The notes under the pieces are model-generated. The model was not told the DNA's origin and did not search any database. It saw only the letters and a list, made by a program, of their open reading frames with translations. The position numbers were made by a program, and so were the translations under genes. Shown here piece by piece: positions 6,459 through 55,072 of a DNA stretch of 64,000 nt. Origin of the DNA: Patescibacteria group bacterium (GTDB lineage: Bacteria > Patescibacteriota > Minisyncoccia > Phycocordibacterales > JACOZG01); assembly GCA_038065495.1 (NCBI GenBank), contig JBBTQW010000001.1:44137-108136 (forward strand), written 5' to 3'. Position 1 is the stretch's first letter, and each line of letters starts with the position of its first letter.

Positions 6459-6486
6459 ATTATAGCAAATGGGTAGAAATTGTCAA
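6459..6486 (-). promoter_or_regulatory. sigma70 consensus promoter module P1 (TTGACA-16-TATAAT, then GGAGGTTGG)
   Basis: Reverse complement reads ttgacaatttctacccatttgcTATAATggaggttgg. It drives the 6089..6385 gene. Confidence 0.6.
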
Positions 6487-18212: not shown

Positions 18213-19250
18213 CTAAACTGGTTTTGCTAGTTTAACCAGCGCCAGTTCCAGAGGTAAGAGAGAAACCGCCGCTTTGGCGGTTTCTGTATGTGCCGCGAGC
18301 AGTTCCCGCAGAATTTCTGGCAAGCGGCTAGCGTTCTCGTGTTCACTTAATTTTTTAATACTATTTATTTCATCAGCGCTCAAACCGGCCAACCAAATTG
18401 TTTGCGAATTTTTGTCATCAAGTCTAACTAACAAAGCGAGACGCAACTGGCGCAATAATAATTTAATCAGCGTCTGCGCGGAATAACTACGCGAGTTACT
18501 CGCTTGCACTTGCTCTAGGGCCACACTCAAATTATTTTCCAGAATCGCTTGCGCGAGCCTGCGGACGAGAACAGCCGCGGGTGCGCCAGTCACCAGTTCG
18601 GCCTCGGCCAGCGTGATTTTGTGATCGCTTGAAGCGCTCATCGCTTGTTGGAGCAAGCCGGTCACGTCGCGGAAGGAGCCATCGCCGAGCAAAGCGATTA
18701 ACTCGCCCGCATCTTTGTCTAATTTAAATTTTTCTTGTTTGGCAATATGTTGCAAGAGATCTTGCAAAGCCGGCTGGCTGGGCTTCTGGAAGGCAAAAGT
18801 CTGACAACGAGAAATGATCGTCTCCGGTACGCGTTCGAGTTCTGTCGTCGCCAAGATAAACACCACATGACTTGGCGGCTCTTCCAGAATTTTCAAGAGT
18901 GCGTTGAACGCCTCTTTCGTCAGCATATGCACTTCGTCAATAATGTAGACTTTCCGCGGCGAGCGAAACGGCAGTGTGCCTACTGCCTCGCGCAAAGCTC
19001 TAATCTCATCAATTCCCCGATTAGAAGCGCCGTCAATTTCGTACAAATCTTCTGGCTGGGTTTCCAGTTCTCTGGCCAAAATTCTAGCCACGCTGGTCTT
19101 GCCCGTGCCGCGCGAGCCGGCAAAGAGGTAAGCATGCGCGATATTGCCGAGCTTGAGCGCGCCGGAGAGCACTTGCACCACGCTCTCTTGCCCGATCACT
19201 TCGCTAAATTTACTTGGCCGATATTTGCGATACAGTGCGAGTTCAGACAT
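18213..19250 (-). CDS. dnaX: DNA polymerase III subunit gamma/tau, short form
   Basis: 345 aa with YRKYRPSKFSEVIGQESVV...AHAYLFAGSRGTGKTSVARILA (Walker A), a DEVHML box and SRCQ sensor. Confidence 0.85.
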   Translation of the reverse strand: MSELALYRKYRPSKFSEVIGQESVVQVLSGALKLGNIAHAYLFAGSRGTGKTSVARILARELETQPEDLYEIDGASNRGIDEIRALREAVGTLPFRSPRKVYIIDEVHMLTKEAFNALLKILEEPPSHVVFILATTELERVPETIISRCQTFAFQKPSQPALQDLLQHIAKQEKFKLDKDAGELIALLGDGSFRDVTGLLQQAMSASSDHKITLAEAELVTGAPAAVLVRRLAQAILENNLSVALEQVQASNSRSYSAQTLIKLLLRQLRLALLVRLDDKNSQTIWLAGLSADEINSIKKLSEHENASRLPEILRELLAAHTETAKAAVSLLPLELALVKLAKPV

Positions 19251-19284
19251 GAATATTAGCGCATTATAACGGAATTTTGAGCAA

Positions 19285-19321
19285 GAAAAAAGGGCCCCAA
19301 CATCACAATGATGAGGGGCCC
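19285..19321 (-). terminator. Rho-independent terminator (GGGCCCC...GGGGCCC hairpin plus T-run on minus strand)
   Basis: Plus strand reads aaaaaaGGGCCCCaacatcacaatgatgaGGGGCCC. It terminates the minus-strand gene 19360..19593. Confidence 0.6.
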
Positions 19322-19359
19322 GGAAAGTACTCCATTTTCTAGCTTCGGGCTGCTGGCCG

Positions 19360-19593
19360 TTAGCTGAAGGTCATACCAGATTTGTTGTTGCTACCGAACG
19401 CGAAAGCGAGCGCGCTGGCGACGAGAGAGTTGATCTGCGCGGTGATCCTCTTCTTCAGGTGGTTGGTAGCGCGGCTGGTGGGATCGTTGTTGTGTCGCGT
19501 AATCAATTTGTTCACGATGAATCCTCCAAAAAATGGAGACCACTTGGCGAAGCAGTTCTCTCTGGCAAACGAGCCAGAAACTGGATCAAACAT
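19360..19593 (-). CDS. small hypothetical protein (77 aa), weakly supported
   Basis: ORF flanked by two terminators with a weak upstream promoter-like element (TTGGCA-14-TATATT) but no SD. The C-terminus is hydrophobic. Confidence 0.35.
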   Translation of the reverse strand: MFDPVSGSFARENCFAKWSPFFGGFIVNKLITRHNNDPTSRATNHLKKRITAQINSLVASALAFAFGSNNKSGMTFS

Positions 19594-19669
19594 AAAGAAC
19601 TGCGGCCACGTTTAATATAGCACAAAACTATTCTGCCAAGCCAGAGTTATCCACAGTGGATTTTTAAGC

Positions 19670-19706
19670 AAAAAAAAATGCCCCCGAACAACAGCTGTTC
19701 GGGGGC
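19670..19706 (-). terminator. Rho-independent terminator (GCCCCCGAACA...TGTTCGGGGGC plus T9 on minus strand)
   Basis: Plus strand reads aaaaaaaaatGCCCCCGAACAacagcTGTTCGGGGGC. It ends the transcript started at promoter P2. Confidence 0.65.
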
Positions 19707-19876
19707 AGAAGGGATCATGTTTTGGCATCTGTTATCTTTGGGCCATCCTAGGGACAGCTTGCAGAGCGTGTCAGGCTCAATGATGCTCAACGATTGAATC
19801 CTTTCAATGGTTGGTCTCTACATTGTTTAGTGGCCGGCCACACAGTGTGGCCGGGTCGCTGCGCCGCCGAGGTTGA

Positions 19877-19990
19877 TCAGCTGCTGGCGTCGTCGCCGTC
19901 GTGCATCGTGATGTCGTGAGAACTCTGATAACAATTACGATGGGTGTTGACCGTGGCGAAATTGCCACCATAGTGATTCCGGACGAGCAT
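19877..19990 (-). CDS. candidate 37-aa peptide (MLVRNHYGGNFATVNTHRNCYQSSHDITMHDGDDASS) on a promoter-to-terminator transcript of about 400 nt; could instead be a non-coding sRNA
   Basis: ATG at 19990 is preceded by AAAGGAGCCTCAA (strong SD, 7-nt spacer). Promoter P2 lies upstream and the terminator at 19670-19706 downstream. The longer track ORF 19877..20080 would need a GTG start without an SD. Confidence 0.35.
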   Translation of the reverse strand: MLVRNHYGGNFATVNTHRNCYQSSHDITMHDGDDASS

Positions 19991-20089
19991 TTGAGGCTCC
20001 TTTGGTCCAAAACGTGGACCGGTAGAAAGAACTTGTCCCCTGTGACTGCGTGTGTCTCTCAAGACAACTCCTCCAATCACTCTACCCCC

Positions 20090-20117
20090 AGTATAGCAAG
20101 CCCACAGGATTTGTCAA
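20090..20117 (-). promoter_or_regulatory. sigma70 consensus promoter module P2 (TTGACA-16-TATACT, then GGGGGTAGAGTG)
   Basis: Reverse complement reads ttgacaaatcctgtgggcttgcTATACTgggggtagagtg, nearly identical to P6. Confidence 0.65.
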
Positions 20118-20158
20118 GTGTTTTGGCAAGATCAAGAGTTTAAATAGCCGAAATACGC

Positions 20159-21145
20159 CTAACTAGAGCCGTTTTTTAGATACTCACTCACAATTTGCTC
20201 AACTTCTGAAGCGCTATTGGTGAGCATTAGCTTCTCACGCAGTTCTTTCGCTCCATCCCAGCCATTTACATACGCTTTATAGTGCTTCTTCATGATCGCG
20301 AAGCTTTTTATTTCTCCCAAAAGTTCAGCAAAAAGCTTAGTATGCTCCAGCATCACACGTAAACGTAACTCCCGCCCCTCGATTCCCCCGGGAAATTTAT
20401 TTTTGGAAAATAGAAATGGATTGCCGAAAATCGCTCGGCCGAGCATCGCGCCATCAGCGCCAGTTGTTGATACTTTTTCTCGCGCATCAGCTAAATCTTT
20501 CAGATCGCCATTGCCAATTATTAAACACGTGCTTCCCGAATTATTTCTAATCTCTACTGCTCTCTTCACTTCTTCCCAACGCGCCGGCACTTTCGACATT
20601 TCTTCGCGCGTGCGCGCGTGGATCGTGATAACCGCTGGCTCTTCAGCCAATAACTCTGGCAACCAGTTTTCTAGCTCATTATTTTTGTAACCCAATCTAG
20701 TTTTGACCGAAACCGGAATATTTTTACCAGCTAATGCTATCCCCTGTTTCGCTGATCTGATTAATTCGCGCGCGAGTTTGGGTGTTTTAATTAAAGCTGC
20801 GCCAGCGCCTTGCTTCTCAATACTCCGGTCCGGACAGCCCATATTAATATCCAAACCATCGAAACCCAGTTCCGCAATCAGCTTGCTTGCCTGCTCCATC
20901 TTGGCCGGCTTGCTTGTAAAAATCTGCGCCACGATTGGCCGCTCTTGTTCAGAATATTTGAGATCATGAAGCAAAACTTCCCGCCCCGGACTCATCAGGC
21001 CATCAGCGGAGACAAACTCCGTCCAGAGTACATCCGGTTTGCCATATTTGGTGATGATTCTTCTGAAAGCGCAGTCAGTCACATCCGCCATTGGCGCAAG
21101 GACGAAAAATGGCTTAGCCAAATCTTGCCAAAAATTTCCACTCAT
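20159..21145 (-). CDS. dus: tRNA-dihydrouridine synthase
   Basis: 328 aa with LAPMADVTDCAFRRII..., the FMN-binding TIM-barrel Dus signature and the catalytic Cys region INMGCP. Confidence 0.9.
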   Translation of the reverse strand: MSGNFWQDLAKPFFVLAPMADVTDCAFRRIITKYGKPDVLWTEFVSADGLMSPGREVLLHDLKYSEQERPIVAQIFTSKPAKMEQASKLIAELGFDGLDINMGCPDRSIEKQGAGAALIKTPKLARELIRSAKQGIALAGKNIPVSVKTRLGYKNNELENWLPELLAEEPAVITIHARTREEMSKVPARWEEVKRAVEIRNNSGSTCLIIGNGDLKDLADAREKVSTTGADGAMLGRAIFGNPFLFSKNKFPGGIEGRELRLRVMLEHTKLFAELLGEIKSFAIMKKHYKAYVNGWDGAKELREKLMLTNSASEVEQIVSEYLKNGSS

Positions 21146-54875: not shown

Positions 54876-55072
54876 CTGTGATAGAATAATTTTCGACAAC
54901 TTAATAGTAAAAGTAGCCTAAACCAGTGAGTAATCACTGGCATGGCGAAAGTCAGTCACGTAATGCACAGAAAACCCATCATGGGGTCGCATTACGTGCC
55001 GTATCGGGAAACCGATACGAGTGGCGCAAGCCACTACCTGTGGTGGGCTTTCTGTTCCTCGCTACAGGTAAT
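54876..55072 (+). ncRNA. candidate structured non-coding RNA or cis-regulatory leader, unknown class
   Basis: Three plus-strand GNRA-capped hairpins: CCAGTGA-GTAA-TCACTGG, CGTATCGG-GAAA-CCGATACG and GTGGC-GCAA-GCCAC. A 10-bp stem CACGTAATGC...GCATTACGTG encloses ACAGAAAACCCATCATGGGGTC. A long-range 8-bp helix pairs TTACCTGT (54877-84) with ACAGGTAA (55065-72). The GCCAC strand can alternatively pair downstream (CCAC-TACCTGT-GGTGG), giving mutually exclusive hairpins. On the minus strand the loops are non-GNRA, so plus orientation is inferred. No ORF with an RBS is present. Confidence 0.4.

Follow-up and report, generated by a model that had tools for sequence, protein, structure and literature searches.

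What does the 908-nucleotide (nt) stretch between dnaX and dus encode in the genome of a groundwater member of the Patescibacteria? The stretch (positions 19251-20158) is part of the window, the whole 64,000-nt piece of DNA that was analysed, and is flanked by dnaX (18213-19250, minus strand) and dus (20159-21145, minus strand). The host is a metagenome-assembled genome of a Patescibacteria from the Hainich aquifer, and the base composition of the stretch shows no anomaly. A sequence-only reading, made without database searches, held that there was no confident protein gene here and described a promoter-to-terminator transcript with at most a 37-amino acid (aa) open reading frame (ORF). The first of these statements needs amendment, as NCBI annotates two hypothetical proteins of 67 and 51 aa in the stretch, both of which are orphans among 5.8 billion protein clusters. 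The transcript, here called the HYGG unit from the His-Tyr-Gly-Gly motif near the start of its ORF, is probably a lineage-restricted small-protein gene, a mini-gene lying beside a second orphan unit between dus and the dnaX promoter. The HYGG unit is newly recognised, and the kind to which it belongs, bacterial small-ORF (sORF) genes, is already known.

The HYGG reading frame

The features of the HYGG unit are listed below in the direction of transcription (UTR, untranslated region; SD, Shine-Dalgarno sequence; bp, base pairs).

20117 to 20090, minus strand: promoter TTGACA-16-TGcTATACT with an extended -10 box, 11/12 in a consensus scan, TG present
19991-20080, minus strand: upstream in-frame extension, from GTG 20080 (67 aa) or TTG 20062 (GGAGGA-N6, 61 aa)
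19997-20048, minus strand: conserved 5'-UTR block CAGTCACAGGGGACAAGTTCTTTCTACC-GGTCCA-CGTTT-TGGACC-AAAGGAG, from comparison with the related loci L165 and L172
20004-20020, minus strand: 6-bp hairpin in the UTR block, directly 5' of the SD GGAG (19997-20000)
19990 to 19877, minus strand: short ORF of 37 aa, MLVRNHYGGNFATVNTHRNCYQSSHDITMHDGDDASS (stop included), with an ATG start led by the SD
19964-19975, minus strand: HYGG codons within the 37-aa ORF
19834-19843 and 19845-19854, minus strand: arms of a perfect 10-bp hairpin CCGGCCACAC-T-GTGTGGCCGG, 23 nt past the stop codon
19708-19833, minus strand: 3' untranslated stretch of approximately 125 nt, from the hairpin to the terminator
19707 to 19679 (to 19670), minus strand: terminator with a 13-bp stem (8 GC pairs) and U9, its 12-nt arms 100% complementary

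Relatives for comparison were gathered by a Dus search, which gave a graded series, and their dus-dnaX contexts were fetched. Both strands of these loci, approximately 1.15 megabases in total, were scanned for a start codon, one to six further codons, and then CAY TAY GGN GGN in a short ORF. The matches were confined to the dus-dnaX spacer, on the dnaX strand and behind an SD; relaxing the scan added two evidently spurious short ORFs, one of 12 aa (a Clostridia locus) and one of 13 aa (L113). The unit is thus represented by four alleles from three lineages, with the window and L165 being strains of one species.

Window: MLVRNHYGG..., 37 aa
L165 (L165:5155): MARRKHYGG..., 34 aa
L172 (L172:4117): MKTHYGG..., 29 aa, GTG start
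L169 (L169:2235): MVLTHYGG..., 21 aa

The arrangement GGAG-N6-start, with either ATG or GTG, is kept in all four alleles. By shuffling, a shared four-residue motif behind GGAG-N5-8-start is found in approximately 1.6e-4 of spacers of this size, and the shared SD-start-motif arrangement was present in both of the independent spacers tested. Within the 12 nt that code for HYGG there are four variable sites among the four alleles; these are the four third positions, all changes are synonymous, and the pattern has a chance of 1/495 by position alone. The codons flanking HYGG vary at all three positions. The third-position synonymous pattern, together with the conservation of SD and start, makes coding a better explanation of the conserved stretch than one purely at the RNA level.

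The 37-aa ORF and its SD, AAAGGAG, stand exactly as the sequence-only reading wrote them, except that the spacer is 6 nt and not 7. The statement that the ORF is at most 37 aa fared less well, as the frame is open from both TTG 20062 and GTG 20080, the latter being the start of the 67-aa form annotated as MEK7650317.1. That the 67-aa protein or its 61-aa form is the real product is very unlikely, even though the frame is open here, the TTG has a good SD, and the start region is like those of the MRDG... and MKDT... ORFs of L166 and L168. In L165, the conserved 52-nt block carries a 2-nt insertion, so that the HYGG ORF and the upstream starts are in different frames there, and L169 and L172 are without the upstream extension. 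Codon-usage log-odds, trained on the long genes of the window, were +0.11 bits/codon for the 37-aa ORF and -0.35 for the extension, compared with 0.33 ± 0.16 for chunks of real genes and -0.51 ± 0.38 for off-frame chunks. Because of the L165 frameshift, the off-frame-like codon usage, and the absence of the extension from L169 and L172, the 37-aa start is favoured over the 61- and 67-aa forms, and positions 19991-20080 are probably 5' UTR rather than coding sequence. The peptides NHYGGNFATVNTHR (tryptic) and NCYQSSHDITMHDGDDASS would be markers for translation from ATG 19990.

Several points weigh against a small-protein gene. The codon score of the 37-aa ORF is under the real-gene mean. The conserved part of the peptide is four residues, beyond which the peptides have almost nothing in common, and the tails of the window and L165 peptides align as nucleotides partly out of frame, with indels. 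A free tail is unusual for a folded or binding peptide and would also fit a role of translation itself. With four alleles, two of them from one species, approximately three independent comparisons are behind the substitution test. The unit is missing from L166, from L168, and from L179, which is the nearest relative of L169. Finally, no homolog was found in 5.8 billion clusters or 1.84 billion representatives, though ORFs of fewer than 30 aa are rarely called.

Promoter, transcript and untranslated regions

The promoter and terminator delimit a predicted transcript of approximately 414 nt, from about 20083 to about 19670, and in this respect the sequence-only reading, with its promoter, transcript of about 400 nt, and strong terminator, was borne out. 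The extended -10 promoter type is found in four copies in the window, where 0.02 are expected by chance, and the L169 unit has an equivalent extended -10 promoter (11/12). A promoter stretch of 29 nt is 100% identical in the window and L165 despite diverged flanks. The pyrimidine-rich UTR block (52 nt) is also 100% identical in L165 except for the 2-nt insertion, in a surrounding segment that has diverged; outside the promoter and UTR block, the variable segment ranges from 79% identical to unalignable between the two strains. Because they are 100% identical inside an otherwise diverged segment, the promoter and UTR block are taken to be under constraint. Part of the block, CAAGTTCTTTYYAC, recurs in L172, and sequence reading of the pre-SD hairpin (GGTTCT/AGAACC in L172 vs GGTCCA/TGGACC in the window) has two of the six pairs altered on both sides. 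The block is present in one copy only in the window, its folding by itself is not significant, and it had no match in viral contigs, leaving a phage origin unsupported.

Near-identical copies of the promoter (cTTGACAAaT-N-TTGCTATAmTGGrGGT) are located at window positions 6486 (minus), 20117 (minus), 27946 (minus), and 50018 (plus). The small orphan ORFs behind them code for 98 aa (membrane-anchored), 37 aa (HYGG), approximately 100 aa, and 64 aa (membrane), respectively. A transcribed leader, GGrGGTwG-hairpin-CTTTGAmAA..AAATAAC, is common to three of the four copies.

Past the stop codon, the hairpin that had been placed at 19832-19852 is a perfect hairpin, as described, with true coordinates of 19834-19854 (free energy, dG, -16.9; z -2.7), and is unique in the window. 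Comparable 10-bp hairpins are present approximately 20 nt past the stop in L169 (z -4.2) and L172, but there is none in L165. The order in L169 is an 11/12 promoter, SD, ORF, 10-bp hairpin approximately 20 nt past the stop, strong terminator, and dnaX promoter. The 3' untranslated stretch is the same in the window and L165 from 19806 downstream and has no detectable similarity to the L169 or L172 units, the likeness between lineages being limited to the promoter/5' region and the HYGG site. The approximately 250 nt of structured 3' sequence noted earlier therefore cannot be upheld as a conserved non-coding RNA, since it has no similarity between lineages and only the presence of the hairpin and terminator recurs. 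The comparison of homologous loci proposed at that time did yield a 5' hairpin with two compensatory pairs in L172, while the 3' region was unconserved.

These results bear on whether the unit is a non-coding or dual-function small RNA (sRNA), acting via its structured 3' part or its 5' block, with the short ORF being incidental or secondary. The transcript folds at -142 kcal/mol (z = -3.3 vs shuffles) and its 3' part has a z of -3.5 vs shuffles, a 52-nt non-coding block is perfectly conserved, the post-stop hairpin is found in three lineages, and the same slot in L166 and L168 holds a clearly structured RNA with eight compensatory pairs. However, the z-score of the transcript comes chiefly from two perfect hairpins and that of the 3' part largely from the terminator and the one palindrome, and the 3' part is without similarity between lineages. 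The most conserved element outside the promoter is SD-start-HYGG, with its third-codon-position pattern, and neither Rfam at permissive thresholds nor a model of the L166/L168 RNA finds anything in the window. An sRNA is consequently an unlikely explanation, and a small-protein gene is preferred.

In Rfam at the gathering threshold, 19251-20158 had no match and the loci of relatives likewise had no relevant match. At E up to 10 the best matches were terminator-driven and sub-threshold: L10_leader with 24.9 bits vs 44 and NsiR1 with 21.8 vs 39. ARAGORN found no transfer-messenger RNA (tmRNA) or tRNA in 19251-20158. The earlier rejection of tmRNA and RNase P RNA is in agreement with both programs, and 6S RNA and signal recognition particle (SRP) RNA were likewise without a match. 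A hidden longer or frameshifted protein was also considered and rejected: tblastn of all frames against the spacers of relatives matched L165 only, and did so in all frames, which is DNA-level identity. Neither this search nor that of Rfam overturned the sequence-only reading.

Protein families and peptide classes

Searches of the 5.8 billion protein clusters with the 37-aa peptide and with the product of ORF B, the ORF of the second unit, returned self matches only, and HMMER over 1.84 billion representatives returned the query and one compositional match inside a 1209-aa protein. No match was found in Pfam, NCBIfam, PADLOC, or PHROGs for the four HYGG peptides or ORF B. The 67-aa and 77-aa forms, scanned against Pfam only, had no match there, and ten further ORFs (at least 38 aa, both strands) gave nothing in Pfam except a 13-bit chance match. 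DnaX-based scans of GTDB genomes and JGI metagenomes gave, among the matches listed, only distant relatives (at most 55% identity) without the HYGG unit. Nothing specific was found in the literature on the HYGG motif or on Patescibacteria small proteins.

The sequence-only reading had suggested a small toxin or a precursor resembling ribosomally synthesized and post-translationally modified peptides (RiPPs), and neither suggestion is supported. In favour of a type I toxin-antitoxin-like module, with the mRNA of a small toxic peptide under antisense RNA control, the ORF is small, its mRNA is long and structured, the locus is variable and accessory, and there is a weak plus-strand promoter-like site (19947-19974, 9/12) antisense to the ORF. 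Such a module is nevertheless extremely unlikely. In none of the alleles is there a hydrophobic stretch of transmembrane grade (best 17-aa Kyte-Doolittle windows of the four alleles -0.36, 0.49, 1.19, and 0.09), the antisense -10 box CATAGT is the complement of the His-Tyr codons and is CGTAGT, not conserved, in L169 and L172, and the SD is not convincingly sequestered.

A RiPP or double-glycine-leader bacteriocin precursor would have the N-terminus ending in Gly-Gly as its leader and the hypervariable tail as its core. GG does close the conserved N-terminal part, the C-terminal part after it is hypervariable, and there is strain-level diversification and a strong promoter. Known double-glycine leaders have 15-30 residues with conserved hydrophobic positions; in the HYGG peptides the GG is at residues 5-9, so that the "leader" is only 5-9 residues long, the tail frames differ between alleles, and there is no Pfam or NCBIfam leader-family match. 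The neighbours considered were the genes called within 3-4 kb on either side of the query gene in the fetched loci: a ClpB-like AAA protein, an unknown protein of 294 aa, Dus, DnaX, two more unknowns (205 and 214 aa), peptidase M3, and SerRS. Among these called genes there is no maturation enzyme or transporter, including peptidase-ABC exporter (C39), radical-SAM, YcaO, and lanthionine enzymes, and a precursor of this type is most improbable.

Elsewhere in the window, positions 54915-55035 (plus strand) are a full-length match to the LOOT RNA family (RF03000), with 89.3 bits vs a gathering score of 46.4.

The second unit and the dnaX promoter

The second unit and the dnaX promoter have the following features.

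19614-19622, minus strand: promoter-like extended -10 box TGcTATATT of the ORF B unit, from sequence reading; weak, no good -35 box, missed by the consensus scan
19515 to 19360, minus strand: ORF B, 51 aa from GTG, MNKLITRHNNDPTSRATNHLKKRITAQINSLVASALAFAFGSNNKSGMTFS (NCBI MEK7650316.1)
19321 to 19292 (stem; to 19286), minus strand: terminator of the ORF B unit, GGGCCCC..GGGGCCC with an inner CAUCA/UGAUG stem and U6 (dG -21.7, z -4.9)
19263-19268, minus strand: dnaX -10 box TATAAT, from sequence reading, 12 nt 5' of the dnaX ATG (19250); no SD

The second terminator reported earlier is present (19321 to 19292, plus U6), and a simple scan passed over it because of an internal bulge. The weak 77-aa ORF that it was said to flank has an open frame, with ORF B open back to ATG 19593, but a separate unit of 51 aa, with an SD and a promoter-like site of its own, is the better reading. 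Because of the codon-usage scores (approximately 0 for the 51-aa form and -0.30 for the extension), the 51-aa ORF B is favoured over the mechanical 77-aa form. The 5' UTR of ORF B (19516-19615, minus strand) has a long hairpin (z -3.7), in which the SD GGAGGA (19522-19527) is paired with UCUCCA (19534-19539); this pairing would mask translation of ORF B. The N-terminus of the product is basic, and one helix, ITAQINSLVASALAFAF, is borderline hydrophobic (Kyte-Doolittle 1.54). ORF B is identical in L165 and absent from L166, L168, L169, and L172, and is a species-specific orphan. It was rejected as a paralog of the HYGG ORF, with which it has no significant similarity; the two initiation regions share one 18-nt repeat at 78%.

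The -10 arrangement of dnaX is also found in L166, L168, L169, L172, L179, L176, and L170. In empty sites, the dus stop codon is inside the dnaX extended -10 box, TGTATAATAG, with the ATG 7 nt further (L179:2030-2050, L176:3400-3420, and L170:2590-2605), and the dnaX mRNA is therefore leaderless there.

The position of dnaX is central to another alternative, in which the HYGG ORF is a regulatory leader ORF: translating M-x-HYGG would be what matters, with pausing altering RNA folding, transcript stability, or read-through into dnaX. A short conserved N-terminal motif, a free tail, and variable length are typical of leader and arrest peptides, such as those of erm, cat, and cmlA, and the HYGG peptides match in all three. 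In L169 and L172 the terminator of the unit is directly 5' of dnaX, and a conserved hairpin is just past the stop codon. Against this, the U9 terminator is strong, and an alternative pairing that would act as anti-terminator could not be demonstrated. Whether or not a genome has the unit, its dnaX has a conserved, nearly leaderless promoter of its own, and in the window a complete second unit with a terminator is interposed between the HYGG unit and dnaX. A regulatory leader is considered improbable, and an independent small-protein gene remains the preferred reading.

Turnover of the dus-dnaX junction

The order of dus and dnaX is kept among relatives, but the content between them differs, as follows (Dus identity is to the window unless stated).

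Window: dus-dnaX spacer of 908 nt
L165: Dus 98%; 855 nt once the scaffold gap is removed
L166: Dus 91%; 648 nt
L168: Dus 77%; 334 nt
L169: Dus 73%; 578 nt
L172: Dus 72%; 433 nt
L171: Dus 72%; peptidase M3 gene between
L173: Dus 71%; two other genes between (322 aa and 86 aa)
L176: Dus 73%; 8 nt
L179: Dus 91% to that of L169; 8 nt
L170: Dus 71%; 7 nt to the next gene, which starts like dnaX

Comparison of L169 with the empty site of L179 places the insert exactly between the last dus codons and the dnaX -10 box, with dus gaining a new C-terminus. The HYGG unit is dispensable, because the closest relatives (L166 and, for L169, L179) lack it. L166 alone has an additional 77-aa orphan in the slot. 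Between strains, all differences between the window and L165 fall in a variable segment at approximately 19807-20249, outside which the two agree completely over more than 8 kb. At L165:5287-5496, the edge of the variable segment, the L165 assembly (GCA_964356885.1) is interrupted by a scaffold gap of 100 N whose two sides overlap exactly over 55 nt. A biological 55-nt "duplication" in L165 was rejected, as this is the scaffold-gap overlap, an assembly break from allele heterogeneity; the break at the variable segment points to co-existing alleles. That the unit is strain-variable and patchily distributed, and that its promoter is one of four near-identical copies in the window, goes beyond the sequence-only reading.

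In L084, from an unrelated sample (SRR32696708), the whole spacer is identical to that of the window, and five substitutions, all at third-codon positions of dus, are present at its own end (window 20243-20267, the dus 3' end). This indicates a putative third strain with a different recombination breakpoint.

L166 and L168, the Dus proteins of which are 75% identical to each other, have a structured RNA of approximately 110-190 nt just 5' of dnaX (L166:4808-4915 and L168:5115-5221), with 85% identity and eight compensatory pairs. An SD and a tiny ORF (MRDGSSSLECNCPSN or MKDTSRSME) precede the RNA. No Rfam match was found for it, for L166 even at a permissive threshold. It was rejected as a homolog of the window transcript, since a covariance model had no match in the window or in 41 other loci searched, and is a candidate new RNA in the same slot as the HYGG unit. 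In the window, GGAGGAGTTGTC-TTG-AGA-GAC-ACA (MRDT...; 20062-20080, minus strand) resembles the SD and start of the MRDG... and MKDT... ORFs (L166:4790-4830 and L168:5098-5135). The likeness could be coincidental, or could be left over from an ancestral unit common to them.

No terminal inverted or direct repeats were found at the slot, no further copies in the window, no integrase among the neighbours, and no match on viral contigs. These results do not point to an integron or other defined mobile cassette. Taken as a comparison of loci, the dus-dnaX spacer is a turnover hot spot, in which small units would be gained, lost, and replaced.

Such turnover is also what would be seen if the unit were decaying or neutral inserted DNA, its promoter and terminators brought by recombination and its ORF functionless and surviving by chance. 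The unit is patchy, dispensable, and absent from the closest relatives, strain variation is extreme and accompanied by an assembly break at the site, the ORF tail drifts in sequence and frame, and the ORF is an orphan in all databases. However, the promoter, UTR block, and SD spacing are perfectly conserved, and HYGG has changed only synonymously across lineages in which Dus is 72-73% identical. At such a distance neutral sequence is unalignable, as the rest of the unit shows. Neutral DNA is accordingly given a low probability, and selection on a small-protein gene is the better account of the conserved parts.

A wider proposal combines several of these observations: the dus-dnaX junction of Paceibacteria-like Patescibacteria would be a dedicated exchange slot, swapping cassettes of promoter, tiny ORF or structured RNA, and terminator (the HYGG unit, ORF B, the 77-aa orphan, and the L166/L168 RNA), with the nascent HYGG peptide as a translation-coupled sensor that would determine what becomes of the RNA encoding it and, in certain genomes, read-through into dnaX. 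This is improbable as a whole and should be regarded as speculative; if true, the HYGG peptides would form a new class of leader or arrest peptides, in organisms whose regulatory repertoires are minimal.

Proposed role and significance

If the HYGG unit is a small-protein gene, the extended -10 promoter would start a monocistronic, strongly expressed mRNA of approximately 414 nt, from which ribosomes would make the 37-residue peptide beginning at the ATG led by GGAG. Selection would act on the N-terminal M-x(1-4)-His-Tyr-Gly-Gly and leave the tail free in sequence, length, and frame, and the peptide would presumably act via this N-terminus as a small soluble accessory factor that is not essential. 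The post-stop hairpin and terminator would end and protect the RNA and would insulate the leaderless dnaX promoter. The dus-dnaX junction would serve as a permissive slot for small units with strong promoters.

With this analysis, a phylum in which small proteins and regulatory RNAs are nearly uncharted gains a small-protein family (M-x(1-4)-HYGG, 21-37 aa) that has comparative support, and a public annotation is corrected from 67 to 37 aa. The unit would not greatly surprise a specialist, but gives a lead for work on small proteins in Patescibacteria. The strongest consensus promoters of these reduced genomes lie in front of tiny orphan genes, and the dus-dnaX junction turns over even between strains. 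A regulatory role for the peptide or its translation, if there is one, would give unusual access to gene control in episymbiotic bacteria that have not been cultured. Otherwise, the unit is one more lineage-specific small gene.

Comparison with known systems

In Bacillus and other bacteria, scRNA/ffs (the SRP RNA) is located upstream of dnaX. The HYGG unit is similarly a small independent unit immediately 5' of dnaX on the same strand; however, it has no SRP or other Rfam signal at permissive thresholds, and its content differs among close relatives, unlike that of an essential RNA. The erm, cat, and cmlA leaders resemble the HYGG ORF in having a short N-terminal motif, a free remainder, and variable length, but are directly 5' of the regulated gene, in the same transcript, and have SD-masking hairpins, while the HYGG unit has its own terminator and no downstream cistron. 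Double-glycine-leader peptides (class II bacteriocins and some RiPPs) also have Gly-Gly closing a conserved part, a hypervariable C-terminal part, and strain-level diversification. The HYGG "leader" is far shorter (5-9 aa), with no C39-peptidase exporter or maturase nearby and no family match.

Dual-function sRNAs, such as SgrS/SgrT, RNAIII/hld, and SR1/SR1P, are alike in size (approximately 0.4 kb) and in combining a short ORF with a long structured untranslated part and a terminator. These RNAs keep a base-pairing region, whereas the 3' part of the HYGG unit is not conserved between lineages and no target pairing could be proposed.

Many small proteins of E. coli have been found by ribosome profiling and tagging (PMC6001520, PMC11429745). 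Characterised products of sORF genes (at most 50 aa, with their own short mRNA) are mostly membrane helices or conserved throughout, while conservation in the HYGG unit is limited to M-x(1-4)-HYGG, its peptides are not hydrophobic, and the host is uncultured. The HYGG unit is like such genes in its stand-alone promoter, SD, and terminator, in being missed or mis-annotated, in its restriction to a few lineages, and in matching no domain.

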